Part shown: piece after piece, positions 6,593 through 34,090 of the stretch
How positions within the stretch are numbered: position 1 is the first letter of the stretch
How the letters are laid out: each line of letters starts with the position of its first letter
DNA from: an uncultured Rhizobiaceae bacterium
Lineage (GTDB): Bacteria > Pseudomonadota > Alphaproteobacteria > UBA828
Length of the DNA: 64,000 bases
Assembly (NCBI GenBank): GCA_964429775.1
Contig: CAYSDJ010000002.1
Coordinates: 60,859 to 124,858, forward strand
Direction of reading: 5' to 3'
Position numbers and translations under genes: made by a program
Notes under the pieces: model-generated
The model's database searches: none
Seen by the model: only the letters and a program-made list of their open reading frames with translations
What the model was told of the DNA's origin: nothing

Positions 6593-6659
6593 TAATTTAT
6601 ATTCTCCGGTATTTTATTAAGTTATCGCTTTACATATGACGACTTTTCGCCTGAGCGGT

Positions 6660-8899: not shown

Positions 8900-8986
8900 C
8901 TAACCGACCAGCACCTATAACTATGTTAATCTAATTATAATTATATAACTCTAGCCTATTATAATTTGTGAGAGTAAATAGACTTC

Positions 8987-10375
8987 TCACAAATCAACTC
9001 GCATATGATTATTTTTATTATTTCCACCTGGGGAAATAAAATCTTCCATGACTGAAAGCATTTTTGTCGCAACGGCTGTAGGAGTAAAAAATTTTTCATA
9101 AGTTTGGAGCCCCCCTCGGCGCACCCTATTATTCAGGTCCTTTTCAAGACACGCGAGTTTGATAAGAGATGCTATTTCCGGTGCCGATGCACCTACGAGC
9201 GCATTCTCGCCATGAACGATTTCCGGCAGTGTTTCTAAACTTCCTTCATGAACAATCGAGCAAAGCCCGAGAGCCCAAGCTATGATCTGCCGGCTGAAAA
9301 TCGATTTCAATGGCCCTGCATTATTCAAAAACAGAAATACATCCGAATCGAGCAGTTCAGAATCTAAGTCTTTTACATATCCTCGAACGATAATATTATC
9401 TTGCTCTAAATATCCCTGAAGAGCTTTAGTAACCTCACCACCACCAATAATGTGAACCTCAAAAGCTAATTCGCTCATTTCCTGCCGCAGAGCCGGCATG
9501 ACGTATTTAAGAAGGTATTCAAGGCCAAATGTTGAAGCCGTCATACCTAAATAACCAGCATGACCGATTATTTTGAAAGGTCGCTCTTCACTTCCATCGC
9601 CCGCTCTTTCCGTATGTCGGTTGGCTATTTCATCTGTTAGTTTTGACCAAATAGTGCCGACATACACAACTTTTGGGTGACCAATATCTTCATAATACTG
9701 GTTATTACCCGCTGACGTGTTAAAAATTATATCTGAGTGAAGTGAGACAAATTTATGAGAGTTCTCAAAATTATTAATGTGTTTCTCTCTAATCATTCTC
9801 TTTATATACCGCACAGCCCAGGGCCTCTTCGGTATCTTCGAGTCCTGAAACAAATGGTTGTATTCTAGGCGTAATTTATCTGTTATAAAATCGATATTAC
9901 CTTGGAAAATAGCCTTCGGATACTTAGTTACATTTGTCGCGGCACCAGCCGCTAGGGGACTCAAAAAAGATAATAAAATATCCGCATCAAATTCATCTGC
10001 GCACCTTGTTATTTCCGTACTCAAGTTTATGGAGGGGTAGTATTTCATCGTCGGGGCTACATTGAAAAACTCCCATATCGTTTTACTCAGACGATTTACC
10101 GGTCCGATTGCATGATGTGTTGGTGCTATTTCGTCGAAAAAGACAGGCCGCAAGACGGTAAATTCATTCTGGTTATTGGCCTCGACCAATAAATGAGAAG
10201 TTGATGTCTTCTCTGAATAATTATTGCCGTTCTCTTGAACCGGCAACAGTGCGACCTTATGACCCATTATAGACATTTCATGAGCCATCAAAAATAATTG
10301 AATATGGACTGCCGTAACTTCCTTAGATACGACGGACTCAAAGGGAAGATTCTCAGTAATAATTAGTATATTCAT
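8987..10375 (-). CDS. Glycosyltransferase, GT-B/GT4-like (tandem paralog B)
   Basis: 462 aa, colinear with paralog A along its whole length (MNILIITENLPFE.. vs MRIIIVVQDMPYD..; ..IVHEGSLETLPEIVHGENALVGASAPEIASLI..). Confidence 0.7.
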   Translation of the reverse strand: MNILIITENLPFESVVSKEVTAVHIQLFLMAHEMSIMGHKVALLPVQENGNNYSEKTSTSHLLVEANNQNEFTVLRPVFFDEIAPTHHAIGPVNRLSKTIWEFFNVAPTMKYYPSINLSTEITRCADEFDADILLSFLSPLAAGAATNVTKYPKAIFQGNIDFITDKLRLEYNHLFQDSKIPKRPWAVRYIKRMIREKHINNFENSHKFVSLHSDIIFNTSAGNNQYYEDIGHPKVVYVGTIWSKLTDEIANRHTERAGDGSEERPFKIIGHAGYLGMTASTFGLEYLLKYVMPALRQEMSELAFEVHIIGGGEVTKALQGYLEQDNIIVRGYVKDLDSELLDSDVFLFLNNAGPLKSIFSRQIIAWALGLCSIVHEGSLETLPEIVHGENALVGASAPEIASLIKLACLEKDLNNRVRRGGLQTYEKFFTPTAVATKMLSVMEDFISPGGNNKNNHMRVDL

Positions 10376-10827: not shown

Positions 10828-11820
10828 TTACGAGTGCTTTGCATAGTAGACGATTTGGCTACCTGAATTTTCAAAGCGAAATGGCACATGAAGAAATTTC
10901 TCCAATTCTTGCCGCACCTTAGGTTGATCTCCAGGCTTCGCCACAAACGCCATGAACCCCCCACCTCCGGCGCCCAGTAATTTCCCGCCAATCGCACCCG
11001 CGCGCCGCCCCGTCTCATAAATTTCATCTATGAAGGTGTTGGCGATACGTGACGTAATTTCTCTCTTGATCATCCATTGCTCATGTAGGAGCCGACCGAA
11101 ATCCGTGACTATGTCGCCTTCGCTGCCAAACAATTGGAAAGCGTCTTCGGCCAGCGCTTGAATTTGCGCATGCTCCTTCTGTTTATTACCCATCTGATTT
11201 ATTTGCTCCGCCGCGATATCCGGTGCGCAGCGGGCGAAGCCGGTAAAAACCAGCATGAGATGGTCTTCCAAGGCCTGACGGCGCTCGGGCGACATTAAGA
11301 TCGGCGTGACGGTGATATCATGATCATCGCGAAAATCGATTCGATTGAACCCGCCAAACGCGGCCGCCATTTGATCCTGCGAGCCAACCGCCTCACCGAT
11401 TAAATCCTGCTCCACATGGATGGCACGCAAGGCAAGCTCCTTCTTGCTCAGCATTTGGTTTTCCAGTCCGGCCAGTGCATTCAGGAGACCCACCGTAAAG
11501 GTTGAACTTGAACCCAGGCCCGAGCGCGCCGGAAGGTCCGCATGGTGGACAATCTCCAAACCGTTCTCATAGTCAAAAAGCTTGAGGCATTCCCGGGCGG
11601 ACGGATGGCGGATATCCTCGACTGTCGTTGTCTCCTCGGTTTCGTAATAACGAATGCGATAACGATAATCGAAAAAGGGCGGCAGGTGACGGGCGGTAAT
11701 AAAGGAGTATTTGTTGATCGTCGCGCTGATCACCGATCCGCCATGTTCCCGGTACCATTGAGGATAGTCCGTGCCGCCACCGAAAAACGATATCCGGAAT
11801 GGGGTGCGGCTGATGATCAT
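10828..11820 (-). CDS. hddA: GHMP-family sugar kinase, D-glycero-alpha-D-manno-heptose 7-phosphate kinase (HddA)-like
   Basis: N-terminus MIISRTPFRISFFGGGTDYPQWY is characteristic of the HddA/COG2605 group. GHMP ATP motif PARSGLGSSSTFTVGLLNAL. 330 aa. Confidence 0.7.
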   Translation of the reverse strand: MIISRTPFRISFFGGGTDYPQWYREHGGSVISATINKYSFITARHLPPFFDYRYRIRYYETEETTTVEDIRHPSARECLKLFDYENGLEIVHHADLPARSGLGSSSTFTVGLLNALAGLENQMLSKKELALRAIHVEQDLIGEAVGSQDQMAAAFGGFNRIDFRDDHDITVTPILMSPERRQALEDHLMLVFTGFARCAPDIAAEQINQMGNKQKEHAQIQALAEDAFQLFGSEGDIVTDFGRLLHEQWMIKREITSRIANTFIDEIYETGRRAGAIGGKLLGAGGGGFMAFVAKPGDQPKVRQELEKFLHVPFRFENSGSQIVYYAKHS

Positions 11821-12938
11821 TGAATCGAATCCATAATACCATGCCAGATTCGGTATTCCTCGAAGAACCCGCTTATCTCGCGCCGCGCATCATCGGGAAT
11901 CTCATCGTTCTCCGCGGCACCGGCCAAAACGCTATCGATTAACGACGAAAGGACCTCTAGATAGTCGTCACCGGTAAGTTTCGCAGACCGCAATTGGCTG
12001 AGAAAATACGCGTTGGCCTTGTTGTTGGGCAACTCGTCCTCAAGGTCGACCCAAAGATTGTGCGGATTTCGAACCTGCTCGACCAGCGGCTCTCCAAACG
12101 CCACCATTTCATCAAAGTGAGCGACGAGCTTACAGAGGACGAAGGCCGCCCAGATATCCGAATTTCGGCCGACCACGGGCGGCGTAAAATACGCCGGCGC
12201 CGCCGCCCGCGACAAAGCCGTATTCTGATTGTTCCAGGACGACCAAGTGCCGGGCGCGAGGGCAAACCCGGGGGCAAAATCGGGCTGCATGGCGCGCACC
12301 CGGATCGGCCAAAACAATCGGCTAATGGCATCGATGTCCGGATCGCCGAGGACAAAGCCATTGAGCGCTGCGATCGTTCCGCGCCCGGCCTTAACGGCCC
12401 AACTCTTGTCCTCGCCAAAGCGTTCGCTCCACGGATAGCCGCGCGGAAAAATCGGCAGCGATTTCTCCTCGATCACACCCTGATAGATGTTGAACCAACC
12501 GCTATCCGACGATACCACCTTGGTGTCGCTCTCCCGCCCGACAACATCGTAATGACCGAAAAAATCCGACCCCGTCATGAAATTATCGTCGTCGAGCATG
12601 ATCAGGCGCTCCGCGCCATCGCGATAGGCAAGAATGTTGGCAAGCATCTTACGGCCGCCCCAATTATACGGCAGAATCCGCTCAGCCCCCGGCAGGCCCT
12701 TGACGATCTCAATCTGGGCCGGCACGTCAAAATAGAGGAATTCGAGGCCGAACTTTTTTTCCATGGATGCACAAAAATCACCGGCGCCAGCCGGTGTCTT
12801 GTGATCGCCAATGACATAAAACCTGATGTTCTCATGCCCATGCTCGCGGGCGTTTGCGCAGACGCCTTCAAAAAATGTCGGGACGTGGATCGTGGTCGTC
12901 AGAACGGCATCAAAACCGGCGTCAAAACTCATGGCCAA
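11817..12938 (-). CDS. Reversibly-glycosylated-polypeptide (RGP / GT75, UDP-arabinopyranose-mutase family)-like protein
   Basis: Colinear with plant RGP landmarks as I remember them. TTIHVPTFF..FYVIGDHKTP matches IVIPTIR..IIVQDGDPS. LIMLDDDNF matches FTIDDDCF. PRGYPWSER..NGFVLGDPDIDAISRL matches VRGYPFSLR..HGLWLNIPDYDAPTQL. GRNSDIWAAFVLCKL matches GRYDDMWAGWCVKVI. ATGA overlap with hddA. Confidence 0.55.
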   Translation of the reverse strand: MAMSFDAGFDAVLTTTIHVPTFFEGVCANAREHGHENIRFYVIGDHKTPAGAGDFCASMEKKFGLEFLYFDVPAQIEIVKGLPGAERILPYNWGGRKMLANILAYRDGAERLIMLDDDNFMTGSDFFGHYDVVGRESDTKVVSSDSGWFNIYQGVIEEKSLPIFPRGYPWSERFGEDKSWAVKAGRGTIAALNGFVLGDPDIDAISRLFWPIRVRAMQPDFAPGFALAPGTWSSWNNQNTALSRAAAPAYFTPPVVGRNSDIWAAFVLCKLVAHFDEMVAFGEPLVEQVRNPHNLWVDLEDELPNNKANAYFLSQLRSAKLTGDDYLEVLSSLIDSVLAGAAENDEIPDDARREISGFFEEYRIWHGIMDSIQ

Positions 12939-12997
12939 CCGAATTTCCTTTTGCGGCTAAATGTTCAACGCTGCGACCGTGACGGCACAGCACAGGA

Positions 12998-13966
12998 CTA
13001 AGTCCCGATATGGGCATGCCACCAACGAAGTGTTTTTTCAATTCCCTCTTGCAGCGATACACACGGTTGCCACGCCAATTCGTCCTTTGCCTTGCTACAG
13101 TTCAACGATAAAGAGGTCTTGATGGTTGGTTTCGAAAGGTCATGTTCCAGGACAAGGTCCGGATTTTCGGCGGCAACGATCATTTCCACCAGATGACGAA
13201 TTGTCACAGCTTCTCCGGCGCCGCAATTGTAAAGTCCGTATTGGGCGGATTGGCGTGTGACGGCACACTGCACGAAATCGACCAGGTCGCCGACATAAAG
13301 AAGATCGCGCGACTCCTCGCCGGTGCCCCAAACGGTGACTTTGCCATCCGCCGCCGTGCACACTTTGGTCATCGTCGCGCCAAACACGTGCGAGCGCTCT
13401 AGGTCAAACTTGTCGTGCGGCCCGTAAATATTGGAATGGCGGATGATGGTGAATTTCGTCTCGCTCTGGCGGGAAAAAAATTCGCACATTTTCTCGATAT
13501 AGACTTTGGTCCAGCCAACACCGAAATAGTTGGGATGAAGCGGCACCGACTCGTCGAAATCGGTTTCGCTGAGCGGCGTGTCGGAACTCTGATACATAAC
13601 CGTACAGCTGAAGAAGACGAAATGGCCGATGCCCAGATCGTGTACGGCGCGCAGCAACAGCGAATTCATCACCGCATTGTCGGTCACGTGAATATGCGGC
13701 CGTGACACAATATCCTTCGACCCGGACGTGGTTGCCGCAGCCTGAATGATGATATCGACATCGGCGAGACATTCCTGAACATTCTGTGCATTGGTCAAAT
13801 CCGCCTGGCGCCATTCAACCCCGGCGATTTCAAAAGGCGGTTTGCGGTGCCAAACGGCAATCACCCGATAGTCCGGATTTCCGGCATAGGCCTCGACGAC
13901 ATTGCGCCCGATAAACCCGGTCGCGCCGCATATAAGAAGTGTCCGGCGTTCGCTCAATGCCCGCAA
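12998..13966 (-). CDS. GDP-L-fucose synthase-like SDR (GDP-4-keto-6-deoxy sugar 3,5-epimerase/4-reductase family)
   Basis: LLICGATGFIGRNV NAD motif and the Fcl-type segment IIRHSNIYGPHDKFDLERSHVFGATMTKV. 322 aa. Confidence 0.7.
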   Translation of the reverse strand: MRALSERRTLLICGATGFIGRNVVEAYAGNPDYRVIAVWHRKPPFEIAGVEWRQADLTNAQNVQECLADVDIIIQAAATTSGSKDIVSRPHIHVTDNAVMNSLLLRAVHDLGIGHFVFFSCTVMYQSSDTPLSETDFDESVPLHPNYFGVGWTKVYIEKMCEFFSRQSETKFTIIRHSNIYGPHDKFDLERSHVFGATMTKVCTAADGKVTVWGTGEESRDLLYVGDLVDFVQCAVTRQSAQYGLYNCGAGEAVTIRHLVEMIVAAENPDLVLEHDLSKPTIKTSLSLNCSKAKDELAWQPCVSLQEGIEKTLRWWHAHIGT

Positions 13967-13978
13967 TCCTCCGTCAGG

Positions 13979-14716
13979 TTATCGCCCGCCCGTAACCGGA
14001 ACCACCGCTCCGGTCACATAGGAAGCTTTATCGGAAAGAAGCCACGCTACGGTGTCGGCAACTTCCTGTGGCAGGCCAACCCGGCCGAGGGGAATGGATT
14101 TCTCCAGGCGGTTCCGATCCGCATGATCACCGGACGCCATGTCGGTATCTATTACGCCGGGGCTCACGGCGTTGACGCGAATGCTCTCGCCGGCGAGCTC
14201 TCGCGCCAATGCCAGCGTCATGATGGCAAGGCCCGCCTTGGCCGCCGCGTAGGGCAAAAGACGGTTGCCGCCGGTATAGGCTGCCTGAGAGACCACATTC
14301 ACCACGGCACCACCGCTGCCGCCACGGCTTTTCGCCATGCGCCGGGCAGCCTCCTGCGTGCAGAATGCCGGGCCGAGCAGATTCACACCAAGCGCGGCGT
14401 CGAAATCGTCTGGAGTCAGATCAATGAAATCCTTGCGTCCGCCGCTGAACCCCGCATTGTTGACCAGAGCGTAAAGCGGGACGGACATTTCATCCACGCT
14501 ATCGAACAAGCGGCCGATCTGATCTGGCGCGGCAACATCCGCCTGAACGGCTCGCGCAATACCGCCGGCGCCCAAAATTTCCTCTACAACGCTGGCAGCG
14601 GCCGCTTCATCGCGCAGATAGTTGACGCACACCGCATAACCCTCGGCGGCCAGGGATTTCGCGATCACCGCGCCAATGCCGCGGCTGGCGCCCGTAACAA
14701 TTACCGCACGAGGCAA
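13979..14716 (-). CDS. Classical short-chain dehydrogenase/reductase (SDR)
   Basis: VIVTGASRGIG cofactor motif, NNAG, catalytic YAAAKAG. 245 aa. Confidence 0.85.
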   Translation of the reverse strand: MPRAVIVTGASRGIGAVIAKSLAAEGYAVCVNYLRDEAAAASVVEEILGAGGIARAVQADVAAPDQIGRLFDSVDEMSVPLYALVNNAGFSGGRKDFIDLTPDDFDAALGVNLLGPAFCTQEAARRMAKSRGGSGGAVVNVVSQAAYTGGNRLLPYAAAKAGLAIMTLALARELAGESIRVNAVSPGVIDTDMASGDHADRNRLEKSIPLGRVGLPQEVADTVAWLLSDKASYVTGAVVPVTGGR

Positions 14717-14729: not shown

Positions 14730-15743
14730 TCAATGACCTTGCGGCGTCATTTCGGGGTCGGTGAACGCGTTATAGCGTTTGTACGCCGCCTCGCCATTCT
14801 GGCGATACCAGGCAACCGTTTGGGCGATTCCCTCGGCCAGTGAGATTTGTGGTTCAAAGCCATATTTTTGCGCCCGCTCCATGCTCATCAGGCGCTCTTT
14901 ATCGCCTGTCGGCTTCGAGGTGTCCCACGCGATCTCCGGCGCATCGTCGAGACAATCGAGAATGACCTCGACCAATTGGCGGATCGAAACGGGCTGGCCA
15001 CTTGCCAAATTAACCGGCTCCGATACGCCGTGTTCCACCATCAACATCATGCCCCGGGCAACATCCTCGGCAAAAATGAAATCGCGCACGGGAGAGCCGT
15101 CACCCCAGATCGACAAGGGATTCTCGCCGGACAAGGCACGCCGGATCAGCGACGGTATGACCATGGCGTTGTTGGCATCAAAATTATCGTAAGGCCCATA
15201 AACGTTTCCCGGGCGAACAACCGAAATTTCGTTCCATTCATATTCGATCTGGTAGGCCTCGGCCTGCAATTCGCCCATGCGTTTTGCCCAGCCGGCAAAT
15301 TTGTCGTTTTCAGATGGGAATGTTTTCCACACATCGTCTTCGCGGAACAGCGCGGCCGGCGAGTAGACACCGACACTACTGGTAAATAGATAGCGCTTCA
15401 CGCCGGCGCGCCGCGCCGCCTCCATCATATTGATGCTGAACATAAGGGTCGGGACAAAAAAGGTCGCCGGCCGGCTCGCCGTCATCGCCGGGGAGCCTTT
15501 GACGCCGGCAAGATGGAAGACATAGTCCATATCGGCGCAGACCGGCATGCAATTGGCCAAATTCCTGAGATCGACACGTACGAATTCGACGCCGTCAGGC
15601 GCCCGCGAAGGCGGATCAAGCGACGCTACCCGCACCTTGGCGCCGGCCGCGAGCAGCAGACGTACCAGCGGTTGACCAATAAGTCCGCTACCGCCGGTTA
15701 CCAAGACAGCCTTGTCGTGAAAGAAACTTGTCTTCGTCATCAA
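14730..15743 (-). CDS. NAD-dependent nucleotide-sugar epimerase/reductase (extended SDR)
   Basis: VLVTGGSGLIGQPL motif, 337 aa, SDR-e architecture. Confidence 0.75.
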   Translation of the reverse strand: MMTKTSFFHDKAVLVTGGSGLIGQPLVRLLLAAGAKVRVASLDPPSRAPDGVEFVRVDLRNLANCMPVCADMDYVFHLAGVKGSPAMTASRPATFFVPTLMFSINMMEAARRAGVKRYLFTSSVGVYSPAALFREDDVWKTFPSENDKFAGWAKRMGELQAEAYQIEYEWNEISVVRPGNVYGPYDNFDANNAMVIPSLIRRALSGENPLSIWGDGSPVRDFIFAEDVARGMMLMVEHGVSEPVNLASGQPVSIRQLVEVILDCLDDAPEIAWDTSKPTGDKERLMSMERAQKYGFEPQISLAEGIAQTVAWYRQNGEAAYKRYNAFTDPEMTPQGH

Positions 15744-15774: not shown

Positions 15775-16737
15775 TCATGCGAGGCGCGCCCTGTGGTAAT
15801 TCAGTAAATCTTCCATGGTCTGCTCGAGCGCCACCTCGGACTGCCAGCCCGTCGCCTGACGGAACTTGCTGGTGTCGGGAATTTGCAAGGTGACATCGGA
15901 CGGGCGCAGAAGCGCATCGGATATTTCATGCCGGACCTCGCAACGCGCCAGCGACTTCAGAACCTCGAGCATTTCACCGACGGTCATGGTGCGGTCCCCG
16001 CCTATATTGTAGGCCTCTCCGGGCGTGCATTTTTCGAGCAATTGCCAATAGGCGCGAACCGCGTCGCGCACATCGGCAAATGTCCGGACGCTATCCAGAT
16101 TGCCGACCCGGACGATGTTGTCGCCGGTCAAGCCGGCTTCGATTCTGGCGATCTGGCGGGCAAACGCGCTTTCCGCGAAGACATCGCCCCGGCGCGGTCC
16201 GGTGTGGGTAAACATGCGCGTCCGCAGAGTGCGAATGCCGTAGGAGAGAAAATATTGCAGCGCGATCATATCCTCGCCGACCTTGGATACCGCATAGGGG
16301 CTGGCCGGGCGAAACGGGTTGTTCTCGTTGATCGGAATCTCGTCCTCGCGCACCTGCCCATACACTTCCGATGACGAGCATATGTGGATCAGCGGGTCGA
16401 GCTCGGTATGGCGCACGGCCTCAAGCAAATTGGTGGTGCCGATTGTATTTACGTGAATAGTCTCGGCCGGCAAGGCGAAGCTGTCGACAACATAGGACTG
16501 CGCCGCAAGGTGAAAGATGCGCTCCGGCCCGACCTCGCGCAGAAGACCAATCAATGACCCGAGATCGTGCAAATCCGCCGCGTGGAGGTGAATGCGATCG
16601 AGAATATGGCGGATATTGTCGCGCGGGCTGCGCCAGCGAATCGTGCCATGAACCTCAACATCCGGGTGTTCAGCCAGAACATATTCGGCCAGATGACTTC
16701 CGACCATTCCGGTTATTCCGGTAATCAATATTTTCAT
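15775..16737 (-). CDS. GDP-sugar 4,6-dehydratase / GDP-4-keto-6-deoxy reductase family SDR (Gmd/Rmd/DmhA-like)
   Basis: MKILITGITGMVGSHLAEYVL..VHGTIRWRS.. N-terminus is typical of the short GDP-mannose 4,6-dehydratase/Rmd group. YAVSK catalytic motif. 320 aa. Confidence 0.7.
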   Translation of the reverse strand: MKILITGITGMVGSHLAEYVLAEHPDVEVHGTIRWRSPRDNIRHILDRIHLHAADLHDLGSLIGLLREVGPERIFHLAAQSYVVDSFALPAETIHVNTIGTTNLLEAVRHTELDPLIHICSSSEVYGQVREDEIPINENNPFRPASPYAVSKVGEDMIALQYFLSYGIRTLRTRMFTHTGPRRGDVFAESAFARQIARIEAGLTGDNIVRVGNLDSVRTFADVRDAVRAYWQLLEKCTPGEAYNIGGDRTMTVGEMLEVLKSLARCEVRHEISDALLRPSDVTLQIPDTSKFRQATGWQSEVALEQTMEDLLNYHRARLA

Positions 16738-16788: not shown

Positions 16789-17529
16789 ATGGCTTCATTG
16801 GATTCAGACGAAATGAGCGCAATACCCTCCATATCCGAACTGCCCGCCATTATCCTGGCCGGGGGATTGGGCACCAGACTTCGGCCGGCAACCGGGGATA
16901 TGCCAAAAGCCATCGTTCCGGTGGCCGGCGAACCCTTCCTCAACCACCTTCTGAGCCGCCTGGACCATGCCGGTATTCGCCGCGCCATTTGCTGCACCGG
17001 CTATGGCGCCGAGCAAATCCGCCAAACGATGGGAGAGAAATTCGCTAATATCGACCTCGCCTATTCCAAAGAGGACCAGCCGCTCGGCACCGCAGGCGCT
17101 CTATCCCAGAGCGCCGAACATTGGCACGCCGAGTTTGCCCTGGTTATGAACGGCGACACTTTGTTTGATTTAGATTTACCAGCCTTTTTAGAGTGGACCG
17201 CAAGCAAAAGAGATATCCGCGCCTGTTTGGCGCTGGCGCCGACGCCCGGCATCAATCGCTATGGCAGCGTCTCGACAAACGATGAAGGCGGCATCACCCG
17301 ATTTGAAGAAAAAGGTGGCCAGTCGAGCGGCTGGATCAATGCCGGCATCTATTTGCTTCGACGCACCATGTTGGATGAATTTCCGGCCGCCCGGCCGCTG
17401 TCCCTGGAAGTCGATATTTTTCCGGCGTTGATTGGCAACGGGCTGTACGGATTTCGCCAGCAAGGCCGGTTCCTGGATATTGGCGTTCCGGAGGATTACC
17501 GCGCGGCCGAGGAATTTGTCCGCGCCTAA
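16789..17529 (+). CDS. Sugar-1-phosphate nucleotidyltransferase (HddC / mannose-1-P guanylyltransferase-like)
   Basis: AIILAGGLGTRLRPATGDMPKAIVPVAG signature. The track ORF (from 16567) overlaps the divergent dehydratase gene and its first 74 codons look non-coding. The first internal ATG at 16789 gives a 246-aa protein of the expected size. Confidence 0.75.
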   Translation: MASLDSDEMSAIPSISELPAIILAGGLGTRLRPATGDMPKAIVPVAGEPFLNHLLSRLDHAGIRRAICCTGYGAEQIRQTMGEKFANIDLAYSKEDQPLGTAGALSQSAEHWHAEFALVMNGDTLFDLDLPAFLEWTASKRDIRACLALAPTPGINRYGSVSTNDEGGITRFEEKGGQSSGWINAGIYLLRRTMLDEFPAARPLSLEVDIFPALIGNGLYGFRQQGRFLDIGVPEDYRAAEEFVRA

Positions 17530-17554: not shown

Positions 17555-18847
17555 CTATCTCGGCAGAGATTCGATTTGATCGCGCACCCAAGTAATATTT
17601 TCGGCTGTTATCGCTTGATGATTGCCGATCGAGAAGCTGTTGCGCATGACATTGGTGGCCGAGGCCAAATCGCCGACCGTACGGTGGGGATAATCCTGCA
17701 AACCCGGCTGGAGAGCGATATTGCCGCAGATGATCGGCCGGGTTTCGATTCCGGCAGCGTCGAAATGCCGGCGCACGTCATGGCATGAATAGGGTGCCTC
17801 GGGCCGGACAGTAACCGGAAAGCCAAACCAGGCATGGGTGCCGCCCGGTGTCTCGCTTTGGGTTTGCATGAAGTCGCCTTGGCTGGCGAAAAGTTTTTTC
17901 CAGTGCGCTGCGGTCGCCCGGCGCTGACCCAGAAATTCTTCCAGTTTCGGCACCTGCTCCAACCCGACAGCCGCCTGAACTTCGGTCAAACGTAAATTGT
18001 AGCCGACATTGACGAAAAGAAACCGCGCATCGATTTCCGGAAATTGTTCGGTGTAACGTTGCTTGTTTTTGGCTTCGCGAATCCAGCCATGCGAGCGCAA
18101 AATCCGTAGCGTATCGGCGATTTCATCGTCAGCGGTCATGCACATGCCGCCTTCGAAGGTGGTGATGTGATGCGAGAAATAGAAGCTGAAGCTCGAAATA
18201 CGGCCAAATTGGCCGAGCGGCCGGCCTTTATATTCGCCGCCCATCGCCTCGCAGACGTCCTCGATCATCATCAACCCGTGCCGGGCGCAAATATCCTCAA
18301 GCGCATCCATATCGCACGGATTGCCATAGACATGGACCGGCATGATCGCACGGGTCTTGGCGCTGACGGCGCGCTCAACCTCGTTCGGATCCATGTTCAG
18401 GGTCGCCGGATCGATATCGACAATCACCGGCGTCAACCCGTGTTGGACCAGCGGCCAGATTGTTGTCGACCATGATAGCGCCGGCACGATCACCTCGTCG
18501 CCAGGCCTGAGACCATCCTTGGTCTGGGGGTTCGCCAAAGCACCGACCGCCAGCAAATTTGCCGATGAGCCGGAGTTGCACGACACCCCTTCGGGCACGC
18601 CGACGAGATTGGCAAAGACACGCTCCAACTCGGCGACACGTTTGCCCATGGTCACATAGGACGTCAGCATGCAATCCACTGCCGCCATGATCTCATCGAC
18701 GCCGAAAGTGGGCTCGTGCAGCTTCAGCCCATTGCCACGCACCGCCGAAGCCTCGGCCATCTCAAGCTCCCAGCCCTCTGCAATCGCCTTCCGGAGTGCT
18801 TCCCGCGCCGCTGCTTTGGCGCCGCTTGGGTCTTTGGCCTTGGGCAA
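17555..18847 (-). CDS. PLP/PMP-dependent sugar 3-dehydratase of the DegT/ColD/E1 (RfbH) type
   Basis: DegT/DnrJ/EryC1 fold (..NSGSSANLLA..). The active-site segment reads SFSFYFSHHITTFEGGM, so His sits where sugar aminotransferases have the Schiff-base Lys. I see no CxC-type Fe-S motif. Confidence 0.7.
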   Translation of the reverse strand: MPKAKDPSGAKAAAREALRKAIAEGWELEMAEASAVRGNGLKLHEPTFGVDEIMAAVDCMLTSYVTMGKRVAELERVFANLVGVPEGVSCNSGSSANLLAVGALANPQTKDGLRPGDEVIVPALSWSTTIWPLVQHGLTPVIVDIDPATLNMDPNEVERAVSAKTRAIMPVHVYGNPCDMDALEDICARHGLMMIEDVCEAMGGEYKGRPLGQFGRISSFSFYFSHHITTFEGGMCMTADDEIADTLRILRSHGWIREAKNKQRYTEQFPEIDARFLFVNVGYNLRLTEVQAAVGLEQVPKLEEFLGQRRATAAHWKKLFASQGDFMQTQSETPGGTHAWFGFPVTVRPEAPYSCHDVRRHFDAAGIETRPIICGNIALQPGLQDYPHRTVGDLASATNVMRNSFSIGNHQAITAENITWVRDQIESLPR

Positions 18848-18880
18848 TTGAGCTACCTTTCCCTGCTGAACGCCGGACGC

Positions 18881-19948
18881 CTAAAACGGCCCGCGAAATT
18901 CCGTAACTTCGGCGGCATCGCTGCCTTCCGGCATCCAAGCGCCATCGTCAGTGCCTGTTACCAGGCTGTGCGCACGCGACGCGATCGTCCGGTCATTTGG
19001 ATAGTAGAGCTGCTCCAGCGGCCGGGTTGTCGGGCACGGCGAAGACGCGAAGCCCATCCGGCCAACGGCGATGCTGCGCCTGCCCTGCAGCCGCTCGACG
19101 GTCTCGGCAATAATTTCGGCCGACGCGCCGCAGCTCAGCCAGCCATTGTCAACGACCAACAGCCGGCCGGTTTTCTCAACCGAAGACACAATGCGATCCC
19201 AATCGATCGGGCTCAGGCTGACCGGGTCGATGATCTCCGCCGCAATACCGACGCTCTCCAAGTGGTGCCGCGCGCGCAATGCCTCAATCACCATATGGCT
19301 GATCGCGACGATGGTGATGTCCCCGCCTTCCGCCAATAAACGTGCCTGGCCGAACGGCACTTCGTAGCTCTCCTCGGCAACGTGGCCGGAGAGGCCATAG
19401 AGCATCCGGTGCTCAATAAAGACGACCGGGTTGTTGTCGCGGATGGCTGAGACGAGGCAGCCCTTGGCGTCATGCGCCGTGGTCGGCGCCACGACCTTCA
19501 GACCGGGGACATGCATGAACATCGCATGCAGCGCCTGTGAATGCTGCGCACCCTGGCCCCAACTGCGGCCAATCGAGGCCCGGACAACCAAGGGCACGCG
19601 ATAGGTGCCATTGAACATGTAAGAAAATTTCGCCGCCATGTTGACCAGCTGGTTCATGCACAGCAGCAAAAAATCCATACGCTGGTGAACATTTATCGGC
19701 CGCATGCCGGCAAGGGCGGCGCCCACCGCCAAACCCGTCATCGCGTCTTCGGCAAGCGGCGTATCGAAGCATCTGTCGGGGCCGAAATCGCGGTGCAAAT
19801 CCATCGTCGTGCCGTAATGGCCCTTATGATCGTCAACCCCCTGGCCGAACACGAACACATTGTCGTCGCGCTCCATTTCCTGCCGGGTCGCCTCATAGAG
19901 CGCCTCAGCGTAAGTGATTTGGCGCAAGGGTTGATTATCCGTAGACAT
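18881..19948 (-). CDS. ThDP-dependent 2-oxoacid dehydrogenase E1 component, beta subunit-like
   Basis: 355 aa, typical E1-beta layout (..VFVFGQGVDD..FDTPLAEDAMTGLAVGAALAGMRPI..). Overlaps the alpha subunit gene by 14 nt. Confidence 0.8.
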   Translation of the reverse strand: MSTDNQPLRQITYAEALYEATRQEMERDDNVFVFGQGVDDHKGHYGTTMDLHRDFGPDRCFDTPLAEDAMTGLAVGAALAGMRPINVHQRMDFLLLCMNQLVNMAAKFSYMFNGTYRVPLVVRASIGRSWGQGAQHSQALHAMFMHVPGLKVVAPTTAHDAKGCLVSAIRDNNPVVFIEHRMLYGLSGHVAEESYEVPFGQARLLAEGGDITIVAISHMVIEALRARHHLESVGIAAEIIDPVSLSPIDWDRIVSSVEKTGRLLVVDNGWLSCGASAEIIAETVERLQGRRSIAVGRMGFASSPCPTTRPLEQLYYPNDRTIASRAHSLVTGTDDGAWMPEGSDAAEVTEFRGPF

Positions 19949-20900
19949 GATCGATCAACATGTCGGCTTCCGGATAAGGTGCGGCCTCCGCCAAGGCAAA
20001 AGCCTCACTGATTTCGGCGGTAACGGCGCCCTCGATTGCCGCCCGCGCTTCGGCATTCAACAAATCGCCGAGAAAACGCATCGGATCTTTGCTAAAGCGC
20101 GCTTGCTCTTCCGCAGCGTCACGATAACCGGCGTCCCAATCCTCGGCTGGGCCGACATGCTCGCGCCAGCGGCAGGTTGTGCATTCGAGAAAGCGTGGGC
20201 CGGCACCGGCGCGTACGTCACTGACCAATTCAGCCGCGGCGCTGCGGATTGAAACAATATTCTCATCGCTAACCTGCCGGCCCTGAATGCCATACGACGA
20301 AAACCGCCCGGCCAGCCCGGGGCCCGCCATTCTGTTTTCAGCCGGCGAATGAATGGCCAGTTGATTATTTTCACAGACAAAAAGCAGCGGCAGATATTTC
20401 AAGGAAGCAAAATTCATCGCTTCATGAAACGCGCCCTCATCGGTCGCGCCCTCGCCGAAAAAGCAGACAACGACCGCCGGCTGGCCTTTCGATCTGATCG
20501 CGAACGCATGGCCCACCGCCAAGGGGATATTGGTCGCCACAATGGCCGACATGCCCATCACGTTGACGGCGCTATCGACGAGGTGCATCGAGCCGGCCTT
20601 GCCCCCGGCGCAGCCCGATTCGCGGCCGAATAATTCGGCAATCATCGCCTTCAGGTCGCCACCCTTGGCAAGATAAAGCGCATGCCCCCGGTACGTGCCG
20701 TAAGCAATATCCTCGCGCTCCAGAACATCGCAAACACCGACCGAAACGGCTTCCTGCCCGATCGATAAATGAATCGGGCTCTTGACCAGGTCAGTCGGAT
20801 AAATTCGGGCAACTTCTTCCTCAACGCGGCGGATGCGCAACACGGCCCGATACAGCGCGCCGATTTTCTCGGTCGAAAGCCCGGTTTTGTTGTCTGTCAT
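19935..20900 (-). CDS. ThDP-dependent 2-oxoacid dehydrogenase E1 component, alpha subunit-like
   Basis: 321 aa. ThDP-binding motif region FFGEGATDEGAFHEAMNFASLKYLPLLFVCENNQLAI. Confidence 0.8.
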   Translation of the reverse strand: MTDNKTGLSTEKIGALYRAVLRIRRVEEEVARIYPTDLVKSPIHLSIGQEAVSVGVCDVLEREDIAYGTYRGHALYLAKGGDLKAMIAELFGRESGCAGGKAGSMHLVDSAVNVMGMSAIVATNIPLAVGHAFAIRSKGQPAVVVCFFGEGATDEGAFHEAMNFASLKYLPLLFVCENNQLAIHSPAENRMAGPGLAGRFSSYGIQGRQVSDENIVSIRSAAAELVSDVRAGAGPRFLECTTCRWREHVGPAEDWDAGYRDAAEEQARFSKDPMRFLGDLLNAEARAAIEGAVTAEISEAFALAEAAPYPEADMLIDHVYG

Positions 20901-21122: not shown

Positions 21123-21851
21123 TCAGCAATCTTTGAGACCCCCGATGAGCAAAAGCGGGCCCTCACAATTTTGAATTGGTTGCGGTGAAAAGCCGGCGGC
21201 GCGCAGTATTTCACACCATTCTTCCGGCGTGAAACGCGCCATTGAATATTTTAGATAATCCGTATCCTCGCCGCCGGCCTTGATCCGCCGGGCCCAGCGC
21301 GCAATCCGTCCGCGTAAATTGTGCCTTCGAAATTCCTCTGATTTTCGCACTTCATGGCGCATATCCGGGACCGTCAAAAAAATTCGGCCGCGCGGCGCCA
21401 GAATGCGGCAAAGTTCTCTTAAGGACGTGGCAGGGTCGGGAATATATTCAAACACGCTGGAGGCGACGGCCACGTCAAAGGATGCATCATCAAATGGGAG
21501 CTTTGCGCTAGCCGATATCTCGAGCGCCCGCCATTGCACGTGCTCACTGCCGGACGCCGCTCGGGCATTGCGCAACATTTCACCCGAAATATCGCATCCC
21601 GTGACGCGCCAGCCCTTTTCGGCCAACGCCCTGGCAAGCTCACCACTGCCGCAACCAAAATCAAGGATGCGCATATCTGGCTGAGAATTTTCTTCGCAAG
21701 CGGCAACAAATCTTGTGATCCGCCCGCGCATCTGGCCCTCGGGCGCATAATGCGAACTCCAACGCCCGGCGACCTGGTCAAAATAAGACCTGACCTGATC
21801 CGTTGTACCGGCCTTTTCGCCATGGTTCGGTGCCTTTACCATCACCGCCAT
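21123..21851 (-). CDS. Class I SAM-dependent methyltransferase
   Basis: Motif I ILDFGCGSGELARAL. ATG at 21851 sits 5 nt after the wecC stop. The longest ORF starts at a GTG at 21872, so the start is uncertain. Confidence 0.8.
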   Translation of the reverse strand: MAVMVKAPNHGEKAGTTDQVRSYFDQVAGRWSSHYAPEGQMRGRITRFVAACEENSQPDMRILDFGCGSGELARALAEKGWRVTGCDISGEMLRNARAASGSEHVQWRALEISASAKLPFDDASFDVAVASSVFEYIPDPATSLRELCRILAPRGRIFLTVPDMRHEVRKSEEFRRHNLRGRIARWARRIKAGGEDTDYLKYSMARFTPEEWCEILRAAGFSPQPIQNCEGPLLLIGGLKDC

Positions 21852-21856
21852 ACCCG

Positions 21857-23116
21857 TCAGAGGGCGCGCCACGACCCCGACGTATCGACAAGCTCCTTGC
21901 CCGCCAGCAGGCTTTGGTCAAGCGATTGAAAGTCGCGATGATTGACAAGTAAAGCCACCACTCCGGCCCGTCCAAGCGCCTCATCGATGGCAACCAAATC
22001 GATATTTTTTATGGCCGACAAAGTGTCTGGCAGTTTCTCGATATGCGGCTCGACCACAAGCAAACGCACCCCCTTGTCCTCGGCCAAACGCGTGACAATT
22101 TCCACAGCCGGGCTGCCGCGTAAATCATCGACTTCCGGCTTAAAAGCGAGACCAAGGCAGGCAACAACCGCATTTTTTCTGTCACCGATCGCTTGTTTGA
22201 TCTTGGCAACCACATGACCAGGTTTGGAATCGTTCACCTCACGTGCGGCGCGGATTAATTTTGCCCGCTCCGGTGACGACGCGACGATAAACCAGGGATC
22301 AACGGCGATGCAGTGCCCGCCGACGCCCGAACTCGGCGATAGCACATTCACGCGCGGATGCTGATTGGCCAGTTGAATGAGATCCCAGACATCGATATCC
22401 AAATCGTCGCAAATGATGGAGAGCTCGTTGGCAAAGGCGATATTGACATCGCGGTAAGCATTCTCAACCAGCTTGGAAAGTTCCGCCGTGCGGGCATTGG
22501 CCAGGGTAATCGCGCCATGCACAAAGGTAGCGTAAAAATCGCGCGCCCGCTCGGCCGAGGGCAAGTCGATGCCGCCCACGGTGCGGTCGTTTTCCAACAA
22601 TTCCTGCATGAGATGGCCCGGCAAAACCCGTTCCGGACAATGGGCCAAAAAGATGCGATCGCCATCATTCGCTTGGCCCTCCGTTTCACGGAATGTCAAA
22701 TCGGTGCGGCAATTGCCGATCCATTCCGCCATGCGCTCGGTGGTGCCGACCGGTACGGTCGATTCGAGAATGACCAAATTTCCCGGCGCGAGATGGTGGG
22801 CCAAGGCCTCGCACGCGGCTTTGATGGCCGCAAGGTCGGCGCCGCTATGGTCGGGCAGAACGGGGGTCGGGACCGCGAGAATAAATATGTCCGCCGGTGC
22901 CGGCGCGGCCGAGGCGACAAGATTGCCGCTGCCGACCGCCGACTTCACCAATAGGTCGAGGTCCGGCTCGACCGAGGTGAACGCGCCGTCATTGATCGCC
23001 GTGACCAGAGCGCTATTGGTATCCACACCATGGACGCGCATGCCTTTGGTCGCGAGTAACGCGCCGGTGGGCAAACCGACATAGCCCAGGCCAACAACAC
23101 ATACCTTCACTGCCAT
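21857..23116 (-). CDS. wecC: UDP-N-acetyl-D-mannosamine dehydrogenase (WecC/Cap5O-like nucleotide-sugar dehydrogenase)
   Basis: MAVKVCVVGLGYVGLPTGALLA.. NAD motif. 419 aa. Immediately downstream of, and overlapping, a UDP-GlcNAc 2-epimerase gene. Confidence 0.75.
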   Translation of the reverse strand: MAVKVCVVGLGYVGLPTGALLATKGMRVHGVDTNSALVTAINDGAFTSVEPDLDLLVKSAVGSGNLVASAAPAPADIFILAVPTPVLPDHSGADLAAIKAACEALAHHLAPGNLVILESTVPVGTTERMAEWIGNCRTDLTFRETEGQANDGDRIFLAHCPERVLPGHLMQELLENDRTVGGIDLPSAERARDFYATFVHGAITLANARTAELSKLVENAYRDVNIAFANELSIICDDLDIDVWDLIQLANQHPRVNVLSPSSGVGGHCIAVDPWFIVASSPERAKLIRAAREVNDSKPGHVVAKIKQAIGDRKNAVVACLGLAFKPEVDDLRGSPAVEIVTRLAEDKGVRLLVVEPHIEKLPDTLSAIKNIDLVAIDEALGRAGVVALLVNHRDFQSLDQSLLAGKELVDTSGSWRAL

Positions 23117-24570: not shown

Positions 24571-25545
24571 TTACTGCGAAAACGGCTGGCGCACATCATC
24601 AAGTTCAGCGTGAATCTCATCGATGCGGCGCGCGAGTGTTGCGTCCAGACGCGCCAACTCACTTGGATTAATGACGCTCTCCAGCTCCAGGAATTTATTG
24701 TTGCGGTAGCTAATATCCTCATCTTTCGGCCAATTGCTGTAACCACGCGTGTACATGGCGGCGAGCGTCGAAATCTGTTCGGCCGAGAGCGGCGGTGTGT
24801 CCAACCCGGCGAAAGAAATTATCGCCGGCAGAAGACCAGCGCAATTCTCAAGCATGTCCTCATATTTGATGACAACAAAATCAGACGGCCGCGCGCGGAT
24901 GGCTGCAAGCCAAGTTTCGTGGTGGCGGACATATTCCTGTGACCAGTACACCAAAAATGATTCGTCTTCCGAGAGACCCTCAATTTTATCGCCGGGCAAC
25001 GGCACCTTCTCGCGATCTGTGCCACGAAACAGATCGAACTCATAAAGCGTCGAAATATTATCGAGGGTGTAACGCTCCACCGTGTAAATCGACTTGATCG
25101 CCTCGTAGGAATTTCGATAGATCATGATGGCGCGGCGGAATTCGGGAAAATAGTGTGAATGGGTCTTCAGAAAACTCATGCCATCGTTGAAATGATACGG
25201 AACATATGCTCCATGGCCATGAATGGTGTCGCAATACTTTCCCAGTTCCTTGTGTGCCAGCTTGCGATACTCCCCTGTTGCGCGATAGTGCAGCACGGTC
25301 ATCAGGGTAAAACGCAACCAAGCGACGCCGCAGCGGCGGTAGTCGGCCAGCATTATTGTATTCTCGTCCACGCGTTGTAGCCGTCTTTCGCGGTCATAAG
25401 TATCGGCAACGGCCTTAACGACAAATCGCGAAATGAACTTGCGCACGAAGCGAGGCAACGCAGCCTTCAATCTGTGTTGATGGGCGGCCTTCATAAGAAG
25501 GAAATACAGGCGCCGGGCGATGCCGCGCACAAGAAACCTGATCAA
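24571..25545 (-). CDS. Sulfotransferase-domain protein (paralog 1)
   Basis: 5'-PSB-like loop ADYRRCGVAWLRFTL (compare the bacterial consensus YPKSGNTWLRFLL), 3'-PB-like IMIYRNSYEAIKS and VIKYEDMLEN.. segment. 324 aa. Confidence 0.65.
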   Translation of the reverse strand: MIRFLVRGIARRLYFLLMKAAHQHRLKAALPRFVRKFISRFVVKAVADTYDRERRLQRVDENTIMLADYRRCGVAWLRFTLMTVLHYRATGEYRKLAHKELGKYCDTIHGHGAYVPYHFNDGMSFLKTHSHYFPEFRRAIMIYRNSYEAIKSIYTVERYTLDNISTLYEFDLFRGTDREKVPLPGDKIEGLSEDESFLVYWSQEYVRHHETWLAAIRARPSDFVVIKYEDMLENCAGLLPAIISFAGLDTPPLSAEQISTLAAMYTRGYSNWPKDEDISYRNNKFLELESVINPSELARLDATLARRIDEIHAELDDVRQPFSQ

Positions 25546-25653
25546 CCTTCCTACCTCACCGTCGCCATGCCCTGATTTGAGTCAAGAGAAACCGCAATGA
25601 CTCAAACCGCAAATCATAATCATATGGGCTGGGACAATATGCCGTCGTCGAAA

Positions 25654-26751
25654 TCAACACGCGCCATTAATACTTGCCGGTATCACGCGTACACTATCAA
25701 GTTCAGAGCGGATTTCCGCAACCCGCGCTGCAAGCCCACTGTTCAGTCTTTCCAGTTCGCTCACGCATATGACATTCTCGAGCTCTCGAAATTTTCTGTT
25801 CCGGTAAGCGATATCATTCTCCGTTCGCCAGTTCGCATGGCGCCGCGTGTACATGGCGGCTAGCATGGAGATTTGCTCGTTCGTCAATGTTGGCGTCTCC
25901 AACCCAACAAAGGAAATAATGGCCGGAAGAAGCTTTTCGCAGTGTTCGAGCATATCCTCATATTTGACCACAAAAAAATCGCTCGGCCGCGCGTGAATGG
26001 CGGCAAGCCAGGTTTCATGGTGCGTTACGTATTCCTGGCACCAATAGTGAAGAAACGATTCATTTTGCGATAGCCCTTCGATTTTCTCGCCCGATAACTC
26101 AACTCCAAAGCGCTTGGGAACATCCGTCAGTTCGAAATCGACGTCATCAAGAGTGTAACTCTCATGCGTGTGGAGTGATTTTATTGCTTCGAACGGATTG
26201 CGATAAATCATGACCGCGCGGCGGTACTCAGGAAAATAATGCGAGTGTGTTTTAGCGAAGCTTGCGCCGTCATTAAAACAATGCGAATCAAAATTTCCAT
26301 GGCTGTGAACGGTAGGAGCAAATTTTCCCATCTCCGCAATGGTCAATTTGCGAATCTCCCCTGTCATACGATAATTCAGCAGTGTCGCCAGTACAAAACG
26401 CAGCCAATTGACACCACAGCGTGGGTAGTCCGCCAATAATATCGATTTGTCATTTATCCATCGCAGCCGCCGCTCGCGGTCGTAAGCGTCGGCAACAGCT
26501 TTGACGATATATTTCGAAATAAACCTGCGCATGAATGAAGGCATCGCCGCCTTTAGTTTCTGCCAGTGCGCAGCCTTGGCGAAAAAATTGTATAGGACTT
26601 TCGCGAGTCTCCAATTGAGGTCTTTAATTATTTTTCTTGCCACGCATTTACCTCGTTTTGGAAACGGTCGAACGAGGCTCACGCACACGCGACGCAATTC
26701 GATTTTCGGAGTAAGTTTGAACTTGAATTCCAAAGAAGAATTCTTGTCCAA
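25654..26751 (-). CDS. Sulfotransferase-domain protein (paralog 2)
   Basis: ADYPRCGVNWLRFVLATLL, MIYRNPFEAIKS, VVKYEDMLEH. Colinear with paralog 1. The longest ORF starts at TTG 26751. Alignment with paralog 1 suggests a GTG start at 26643 (about 330 aa). Confidence 0.65.
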   Translation of the reverse strand: MDKNSSLEFKFKLTPKIELRRVCVSLVRPFPKRGKCVARKIIKDLNWRLAKVLYNFFAKAAHWQKLKAAMPSFMRRFISKYIVKAVADAYDRERRLRWINDKSILLADYPRCGVNWLRFVLATLLNYRMTGEIRKLTIAEMGKFAPTVHSHGNFDSHCFNDGASFAKTHSHYFPEYRRAVMIYRNPFEAIKSLHTHESYTLDDVDFELTDVPKRFGVELSGEKIEGLSQNESFLHYWCQEYVTHHETWLAAIHARPSDFFVVKYEDMLEHCEKLLPAIISFVGLETPTLTNEQISMLAAMYTRRHANWRTENDIAYRNRKFRELENVICVSELERLNSGLAARVAEIRSELDSVRVIPASINGAC

Positions 26752-33708: not shown

Positions 33709-33726
33709 GGTGCGGGCAGACTTAGG

Positions 33727-34077: not shown

Positions 34078-34090
34078 GTGCCGGGCTCCG

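Follow-up and report, generated by a model that had tools for sequence, protein, structure and literature searches.

A 64,000-nucleotide stretch of contig CAYSDJ010000002.1 from an uncultured Rhizobiaceae bacterium (GenBank assembly GCA_964429775.1; the whole 64-kb stretch is hereafter the window) encodes, in three adjoining genes, the α and β subunits of a thiamine diphosphate (ThDP)-dependent E1 enzyme and a ColD-type sugar 3-dehydratase of the DegT family. These three genes are best explained as the core of a conserved cassette that belongs to a pathway for modifying guanosine diphosphate (GDP)-heptose, encoded in a capsule or O-antigen locus. The E1 pair is very probably a sugar-pathway enzyme rather than the E1 of a dehydrogenase complex and, with more reserve, we favor the specific mechanism suggested by its sequence and setting, in which it would place an acetyl branch on C4 of a keto sugar. 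The gene identities, the active-site signatures, the absence of E2 and E3 partners from the DNA searched, the conserved synteny and the separate clade of the pair were established directly.

The genes lie head-to-tail on the minus strand, with the transcription order E1α, E1β, DegT. The E1α and E1β genes overlap by 14 nt, the shared stretch ATGTCTACGGATAA containing both the E1β start codon and the E1α stop codon, and a gap of 33 nt separates E1β from the DegT gene. An earlier sequence-only reading of this DNA had described the overlap and the position of the pair directly upstream of a ColD-like gene, and the open reading frames (ORFs) bear this out; its text also had the E1 pair preceding the dehydratase, but its title reversed that order. 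The ThDP motif that it picked out, GEGATDEG..CENNQ, is likewise present: the E1α segment FFGEGATDEG...VCENNQ aligns with GDGAANQG...CENNR of human pyruvate dehydrogenase (PDH) E1α, with Glu in place of Asp, and both the GEG and the GDG variants are found within the E1 family. The active-site His of E1α (RWREH), which is aligned to His263 of human PDH E1α, is kept, and in the alignment E1β retains its His (AQHSQ) and the cofactor-activating Glu (PLAE). The paired E1_dh α and Transket_pyr/Transketolase_C β subunits, the ThDP motif and these Glu and His residues place the pair among the heterotetramer-type ThDP E1 enzymes of the α-KADH2 superfamily. A scan for promoters and terminators gave no signal exceeding chance.

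Several features set the pair apart from the E1 of known dehydrogenase complexes. In the NCBIfam comparison E1α scored 270.7 bits against TIGR03182 (cut-off 393.85) and E1β scored 300.2 bits against PRK09212 (cut-off 321). Moreover, E1β carries a C-terminal extension of ~30 amino acids (aa; window positions 18881–18970) that ends in EFRGPF. The tail F[RK]GPF was present in every family E1β examined (loci L005–L084, L085 and L087) and absent from E2-linked E1β; conceivably it obstructs the site to which E2 binds or forms part of the channel to the active site. The C-terminus of a stand-alone Streptomyces homologue reads FAGPY.

To look for partners we scanned with Pfam the window ORFs of at least 200 aa that were not explained as shadow ORFs of scanned genes. 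This set contained no match to 2-oxoacid_dh or Biotin_lipoyl, no significant match to Pyr_redox and no TPP_enzyme domains of the kind found in a YerE-type single-chain enzyme. A six-frame motif search of the 64-kb window revealed neither DHRxxDG nor the E3 redox-disulfide motif, and no E2 or E3 signature was present in 84 related loci totaling ~1.3 Mb. By contrast, all six E1β homologues of 42–46% identity that we examined, from proteobacteria, Bacillota and Thermus, are followed immediately by E2 and often also by E3. A neighbor-joining tree of 32 E1β sequences with 100 bootstrap replicates recovered the core E1β family as monophyletic (100/100) and split stand-alone from E2-linked E1β with the same support (100/100). 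The pair thus shares its fold and cofactor machinery with the E1 of pyruvate, branched-chain 2-oxoacid and acetoin dehydrogenases, its E1β being 43–46% identical to the E2-linked homologues examined, but differs from them in its separate clade, sub-cut-off scores, C-terminal extension and lack of a cis E2 or E3 in any locus examined. Because of the tree split, the family tail and the scores below the NCBIfam PDH cut-offs, we conclude that the pair, set against the six E2-linked sequences sampled, stands apart from the acetoin and pyruvate dehydrogenases. The sequence-only reading had noted that no E2 or E3 partner was present and had considered a 2-oxoacid dehydrogenase complex unlikely; both views hold in the window and the related loci. 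Clustering with acetoin or pyruvate dehydrogenases, which it had named as evidence that would speak against a sugar role, was not what the tree gave, the clade lying apart from the six E2-linked E1β sequences at 100/100.

The DegT protein belongs to the pyridoxal phosphate/pyridoxamine phosphate (PLP/PMP)-dependent sugar 3-dehydratases. Its top PDB matches were near-equal, the RfbH/E1 dehydrase structure 3BCX scoring 255 bits and ColD (2GMS) 249 bits, and the residues distinguish the two. The segment SFYFSHHITTFEGG aligns with the Ser-His pair of ColD and the His of RfbH, at a site where aminotransferases have Asn-Lys, while FSHH was matched in the alignment to YSHH of ColD and AHH of RfbH. 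Instead of the Cys-rich Fe-S segment that RfbH carries, WGRDCYCAPGCDNTCKKRF, the protein has HGWIREAKNKQRY, and in this it follows ColD. We therefore assign the protein as a ColD-type, reductase-independent 3-dehydratase because the Cys-rich [2Fe-2S] segment is missing; for the same reason an RfbH-type identity, which was its top NCBIfam match, was rejected. The Pfam scans of the window turned up no RfbI-type reductase gene. ColD itself, the GDP-4-keto-6-deoxy-D-mannose 3-dehydratase of the colitose pathway, has in common with the window enzyme the Ser-His pair, the lack of an Fe-S cluster and a GDP-type context. The window enzyme differs from ColD in an N-terminal extension of ~40 aa, like that of RfbH, in its substrate, which is probably a heptose, and in the proposed next step, which would be C-branching here and is carried out by the epimerase/reductase ColC in the colitose pathway.

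The arrangement is conserved well beyond the window. A scan of one genome per species yielded 80 related loci with E1β identities of 59–86%, mostly from Alphaproteobacteria (including Skermanella aerolata) but also from Gammaproteobacteria (including Coxiellaceae and Legionellales), one Nitrospiraceae and one Acidobacteriaceae; the close relatives of E1β number thousands and are annotated generically as pyruvate/acetoin dehydrogenase E1 or transketolase C-terminal domain protein. E1α adjoins E1β in all related loci for which the upstream flank was available, and among the 71 species-level loci that extend far enough downstream a ColD-type gene directly follows E1β in 50, which answers the call of the earlier reading for a genomic co-occurrence analysis of the pair with ColD-like genes. 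The DegT homologues adjoining E1β fall into two classes by length and identity, and all of them carry the Ser-His-His signature (57/57) and none the Fe-S motif (0/57). Among 45 loci of at least 15 kb, the neighbors include a nucleotidyltransferase (37 loci), a GHMP kinase (33), a 4,6-dehydratase (29) and the SIS-domain protein GmhA (12). Other recurrent neighbors are GDP-fucose-synthase-like short-chain dehydrogenases/reductases (SDRs), aldo-keto reductases, B12-radical-S-adenosylmethionine (SAM) enzymes and PhyH genes, and the homologues of the HddC-like nucleotidyltransferase often form a single protein with a HAD phosphatase. Together the recurrent neighbors constitute a pathway to GDP-D-glycero-α-D-manno-heptose with tailoring enzymes.

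More distant genomes show related arrangements. A translated search of plasmids identified homologues of 58% identity in Azospirillum lipoferum 4B, A. ramasamyi and A. thermophilum, and the A. lipoferum 4B locus, the one of this group that was examined, has the E1α-E1β-DegT arrangement. Homologues of 47–49% identity in Azospirillum oryzae and Solidesulfovibrio magneticus RS-1 likewise belong to sugar clusters, in which kinase, SIS, DegT, SDR, nucleotidyltransferase and radical-SAM genes also occur. On a 1.2-Mb metagenome contig (locus L003, positions 8101–10017 and 11982–14561) two gene fusions were found: one joins an SDR to the N-terminus of E1α in a 638-aa protein, the other the 4,6-dehydratase to the nucleotidyltransferase-HAD protein. 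The fused SDR domain is the top full-length tblastn match to the second extended SDR of the window (57%). As these fusions occur only in L003, they are weak evidence alone.

The genes around the cassette point to the sugar on which it would act. The whole window is one large surface-polysaccharide region with glycosyltransferases and sulfotransferases, a NeuB-type pathway and, for export, an ABC exporter and YjbH/YjbF/Wza-like genes, and by top matches the DmhA-like, HddC-like and HddA-like genes of a GDP-6-deoxy-heptose pathway are present in it. The 4,6-dehydratase scored 268 bits against GDP-D-glycero-D-manno-heptose 4,6-dehydratase (7US5) and 157 bits against GDP-mannose 4,6-dehydratase. 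The nucleotidyltransferase matched HddC of the 6-deoxy-manno-heptose pathway best (5XHW/6JQ8, 136 bits), with mannose-1-phosphate guanylyltransferases at 96–106 bits. The GHMP kinase had the D-glycero-D-manno-heptose 7-phosphate kinase HddA as its top NCBIfam match (142 bits, below cut-off). The DmhA-like 4,6-dehydratase was found in 40 related loci and the HddA-like kinase in 50, and GmhA and GmhB are present or fused in many of them. Because the 4,6-dehydratase and nucleotidyltransferase of the window match solved GDP-heptose enzymes best, the acceptor is probably GDP-3,6-dideoxy-4-keto-heptose and not a hexose.

Features of the window around the E1-ColD cassette and elsewhere in the locus
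Feature	Position	Strand	Size	Matches and remarks
E1α-like ThDP-binding subunit	19935–20900	−	321 aa	PF00676 E1_dh, 178 bits
E1β-like subunit	18881–19948	−	355 aa	PF02779 Transket_pyr and PF02780 Transketolase_C
ColD-type PLP/PMP-dependent sugar 3-dehydratase, DegT family	17555–18847	−	430 aa	PF01041, 328 bits
HddC-like sugar-1-phosphate guanylyltransferase	16813–17529	+	238 aa	PF00483; start codon read from sequence; convergent with the dehydratase gene
DmhA-like GDP-heptose 4,6-dehydratase	15775–16737	−	320 aa	top PDB match 7US5
Extended SDR, candidate epimerase/reductase	14730–15743	−		Pfam Epimerase; PDB matches (~105 bits): GDP-fucose synthase, GDP-mannose 3,5-epimerase
Classical SDR, FabG-like	13979–14716	−	245 aa	adh_short_C2, 196 bits
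Second extended SDR, GDP-sugar epimerase/reductase type	12998–13966	−		resembles GDP-fucose synthase/GDP-mannose 3,5-epimerase
Conserved protein	11817–12938	−	373 aa	only in closest relatives
HddA-like GHMP sugar kinase	10828–11820	−	330 aa	GHMP_kinases_N and _C
SAM-dependent methyltransferase	21123–21872	−		Methyltransf_11/23/25; directly upstream of E1α
B12-binding radical-SAM protein	230–1786	−		~9 kb from the cassette
Two tandem sulfotransferase-domain genes	24571–26751	−		
Nonulosonic acid pathway	33022–36264	−		NeuB-type synthase, hydrolyzing 2-epimerase, CMP-transferase
Split transketolase (second ThDP system), both halves	39628–41636	−		halves abutting
Split transketolase, N-terminal half	40551–41636	−		
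Split transketolase, C-terminal half	39628–40551	−		
RfaE-like PfkB kinase/nucleotidyltransferase	45083–46717			neighbor of the split transketolase
TylC3-like sugar C-methyltransferase	46687–47934			neighbor of the split transketolase

The pathway that we propose would begin with the HddA-like kinase and the HddC-like guanylyltransferase, which would provide GDP-D-glycero-α-D-manno-heptose. The DmhA-like 4,6-dehydratase would convert this into GDP-6-deoxy-4-keto-heptose, and the ColD-type enzyme, which requires the 4-keto group to form its PMP Schiff base at C4, would strip off the 3-hydroxyl to yield GDP-3,6-dideoxy-4-keto-heptose. The stand-alone E1, as an α2β2 enzyme, would then decarboxylate pyruvate on ThDP, and the resulting hydroxyethyl-ThDP carbanion would attack the C4 ketone, leaving a 4-C-acetyl tertiary alcohol. 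Finally, the adjoining SDRs, classical or GDP-fucose-synthase-like, and perhaps the methyltransferase would tailor the sugar, for example by converting the branch to 1-hydroxyethyl, and the predicted product would be a nine-carbon, heptose-based homologue of yersiniose. We infer the sequence of reactions, the use of pyruvate, the attack at C4 and the structure of the finished sugar; the ColD step is placed before branching because branching uses up the ketone, and the tight E1β-ColD adjacency fits direct use of the 4-keto product. The sequence-only reading had proposed that an E1-type enzyme C-acylates a GDP-linked 3,6-dideoxy-4-keto sugar, and comparative genomics supports this proposal, but the hexose acceptor is corrected to a probable heptose.

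This chemistry has precedents. E1 α/β pairs are established or proposed for two-carbon (C2) branching in avilamycin, everninomicin, paulomycin, kosinostatin, aldgamycin, trioxacarcin and kibdelomycin biosynthesis, and transfer of a pyruvate-derived C2 unit by KbDH-α/β of the kibdelomycin pathway, by which the ketone becomes a tertiary alcohol, has been characterized in vitro. The avilamycin pair AviB1/AviB2, which the earlier reading had named as proposed for a two-carbon branch, is confirmed in the literature. A 2025 review places the E1-type branching enzymes in secondary metabolites and regards them as apparently specialized for pyruvate-derived C2 units; it attributes the branched lipopolysaccharide (LPS) sugars yersiniose, erwiniose, caryophyllose and gastriose to YerE-like enzymes. 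Like the members of the actinomycete α-KADH2 group (AviB1/AviB2, Plm8/Plm9, EvdU5/EvdS3, KbDH-α/β and the aldgamycin and kosinostatin enzymes), which are E2-less stand-alone pairs in nucleoside diphosphate (NDP)-deoxysugar pathways, the window pair stands alone inside a nucleotide-sugar pathway that yields a keto-deoxysugar. The actinomycete pairs act on deoxythymidine diphosphate (dTDP)- or uridine diphosphate (UDP)-linked hexoses and pentoses in the secondary metabolism of Actinomycetota, whereas the clade of the window pair occurs in Gram-negative surface-polysaccharide loci with GDP-heptose genes, a ColD-type 3-dehydratase and the F[RK]GPF tail. By analogy, the pair most likely works like the actinomycete sugar-branching E1 enzymes, and what would be new is the Gram-negative surface-glycan setting with ColD and GDP-heptose genes. 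In the literature we found no Gram-negative surface glycan for which an E1-type branching enzyme is described, nor an E1 pair associated with ColD and GDP-heptose genes, although an earlier mention of either in a genome-mining survey of ~120 clusters with such enzymes (Krug et al. 2024) is possible. Plasmid homologues from Streptomyces griseofuscus and S. albogriseolus were rejected as references, as they lie in polyketide synthase/nonribosomal peptide synthetase or transporter contexts with no sugar cluster.

The same logic of 4,6-dehydratase, PMP 3-dehydratase, ThDP branching enzyme and reductase is found in the YerE/YerF system of yersiniose A (also ErwE, MMAR_2332 and MygE), in which a 2-oxo acid donates an acyl branch to C4 of a 3,6-dideoxy-4-keto nucleotide sugar destined for a cell-surface glycan; the regiochemistry is probably the same. 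YerE, however, is a single chain of the acetolactate-synthase/decarboxylase superfamily and uses a cytidine diphosphate (CDP)-hexose made by the Fe-S enzyme RfbH and its reductase, whereas the window combines a two-subunit E1-type enzyme, an Fe-S-free ColD-type dehydratase and a GDP-linked, probable heptose. A link to mycobacterial lipooligosaccharides and caryophyllose was rejected, as those sugars are made with YerE-like enzymes and not with E1 pairs.

Very improbable is a reading in which the pair serves as E1 in a common pyruvate or acetoin dehydrogenase complex, with E2 and E3 encoded elsewhere and an incidental position in a glycan locus. Public annotations do name these proteins pyruvate or acetoin dehydrogenase E1, the Coxiella burnetii genes CBU_0692 and CBU_0693 were so interpreted (PMC5423948), the catalytic His residues for lipoyl acylation are conserved, and the 64-kb window is the part of the source genome that the E2/E3 search covered. 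Yet the sugar-gene context is kept in at least 80 species-level genomes (Alpha- and Gammaproteobacteria, Nitrospiraceae, Acidobacteriaceae and Desulfovibrionia), the clade lies apart from E2-linked E1β with scores under the PDH equivalog cut-offs, an extra stretch follows the point where E1β normally ends, and in one locus an SDR is fused to E1α. Improbable, too, is a role as a decarboxylase or lyase instead of a carboligase, by which the pair, like the E1 enzymes that cleave acetoin, would break a C-C bond next to the carbonyl of a sugar or remove CO2 from a 2-oxo acid of sugar origin. Acetoin:DCPIP oxidoreductase of the same superfamily cleaves an α-hydroxyketone (literature), many family members bear that name in JGI annotation, and a NeuB-type ulosonic acid pathway lies at 33–36 kb of the window; but the NeuB genes show no conserved association with the E1 pair across related loci, a 3-deoxy-4-keto sugar offers no obvious productive cleavage, and the acyl fragment would have no acceptor, since E2 is absent.

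ColD-type enzymes use glutamate to restore their PMP and set 2-oxoglutarate free. This compound is one of the alternative donors, beside hydroxypyruvate and 2-oxobutyrate, that would apply if the pair worked in the same pathway by other chemistry; alternatively the site would differ, with chain extension at an oxidized C7 of the heptose or a branch at C3. We consider such variants unlikely, if worth keeping in view. YerE-like enzymes accept C3 to C8 donors (literature), the acceptor is not always 3-deoxy, as most gammaproteobacterial loci examined have no ColD-type gene directly after E1β, and the recurrent B12-radical-SAM, aldo-keto reductase and PhyH genes hint at more elaborate products. 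The apparent specialization of E1-type branching enzymes for pyruvate C2 units noted in the review, and the E1β-ColD adjacency that suits a 4-keto product, argue instead for C4 acetyl branching.

Several points weigh against C4 acetyl branching of a GDP-heptose by the pair. The C-acylation function of the clade is read from sequence and gene neighborhood; the window pair is likened to AviB1/B2, Plm8/9 and KbDH by description and not by sequence; and the outgroup of the tree comprises six E2-linked E1β sequences only. The window has neither GmhA nor a phosphatase of the GmhB type, and the heptose assignment therefore rests on the top matches and the related loci. If C4 is quaternary, the two GDP-fucose-synthase-like SDRs would be superfluous as 4-reductases. 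Finally, 16 gammaproteobacterial loci extend far enough downstream, and 13 of these lack a ColD-type gene immediately behind E1β, so that 3-deoxygenation is not obligatory for the E1. Gammaproteobacterial loci with the E1 pair and no adjacent ColD-type gene are L032–L045 and L048–L049, including Coxiellaceae (L040) and Legionellales (L049); many gammaproteobacterial loci have a 4,6-dehydratase-GmhA-nucleotidyltransferase block upstream and large proteins of ~630–1225 aa downstream. The 4,6-dehydratase kept in these loci suggests that the E1 may also accept a 6-deoxy-4-keto sugar directly.

Several neighboring genes are candidates for tailoring steps. The classical SDR, homologues of which occur in 15 related loci, is a candidate acetyl-branch reductase and would be the analogue of YerF. 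The methyltransferase directly upstream of E1α is a possible tailoring enzyme, and its position is conserved only in the closest relatives (L001, L002 and L005). The 373-aa protein is 78–81% identical in the same three loci; it had neither a Pfam nor an NCBIfam match, even at E=1, and a relaxed Pfam search gave no match for it or for other unannotated ORFs. B12-binding radical-SAM proteins (clusters rSAM678 and rSAM531) recur beside the E1-ColD cassette in ~25 related loci, often with an aldo-keto reductase, and could methylate or cyclize the branched sugar; a distant protein of this kind lies in the window, ~9 kb off.

Other parts of the window also concern glycans. The split transketolase has as its neighbors (36833–47934) an APH-like kinase, two SDRs and a RmlD-like reductase, in addition to the kinase/nucleotidyltransferase and C-methyltransferase listed in the table. 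Split transketolases have been proposed in the literature as keto-sugar branching enzymes in miharamycin and amipurimycin biosynthesis, and the locus may hold two different sugar C-C bond-forming systems. Sulfotransferase genes are found near the E1 cassette also on plasmid AZO_p6 of A. lipoferum 4B and, together with the tandem pair of the window, suggest a sulfated glycan. Two islands (4001–10000 and 47000–50000) have a low guanine-cytosine content of 0.36–0.40, compared with ~0.57 elsewhere; they contain glycosyltransferase-like and unannotated ORFs and an ABC exporter, and are typical of the horizontally exchanged, serotype-specific parts of glycan loci.

The cassette may also bear on sugars with more carbons. 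It is doubtful, though conceivable, that the combination of E1, ColD and GDP-heptose genes supplies the missing skeleton-building step for nine- or ten-carbon branched or carbocyclic LPS sugars. Caryose is a 4,8-cyclo-3,9-dideoxy-nonose, the biosynthesis of which is stated in the literature to be unknown. Speculatively, joining the seven carbons of a heptose to a pyruvate-derived C2 unit at C4 would reproduce three of its features, namely the 3-deoxy position, the bond between C4 and C8 and the methyl group at C9; since caryose keeps its 6-hydroxyl, passage through a 4,6-dehydratase is disfavored. By analogy with bradyrhizose-like sugars, the B12-radical-SAM enzymes and oxidoreductases that recur in related loci could cyclize the skeleton into a carbocycle or methylate it. 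A protein search with a Xanthobacteraceae E1β, made to follow the bradyrhizose lead, returned proteins from metagenomes and metagenome-assembled genomes only.

A related case concerns Coxiella. We take the C. burnetii genes CBU_0692 and CBU_0693, from the gene numbering, to lie close to the LPS biosynthesis genes CBU_0678–0683. In the one paper found to name them, both genes are listed as horizontally acquired "pyruvate dehydrogenases" and were interpreted as fatty-acid-related (PMC5423948). In an uncultured Coxiellaceae genome a member of the E1 family adjoins a heptose 4,6-dehydratase, GmhA and a nucleotidyltransferase. The literature and the presence of the family in Coxiellaceae and Legionellales suggest, by analogy, that the "pyruvate dehydrogenase" genes of the Coxiella O-antigen may be glycan enzymes.

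If our reading of the E1 pair is correct, thousands of genes that now carry the label pyruvate or acetoin dehydrogenase E1, in Alphaproteobacteria of soil and water, on Azospirillum plasmids and in Coxiellaceae and Legionellales, would encode glycan-building carboligases, and would form a family of ketone-accepting ThDP carboligases of interest as a way to prepare tertiary alcohols. Gram-negative bacteria would then branch their surface sugars by two unrelated types of ThDP enzyme, YerE-like and E1-like. The reading also predicts nine-carbon branched heptoses, a class not yet seen in LPS or capsule chemistry, and would offer a concrete candidate for the unexplained biosynthesis of higher-carbon LPS sugars.

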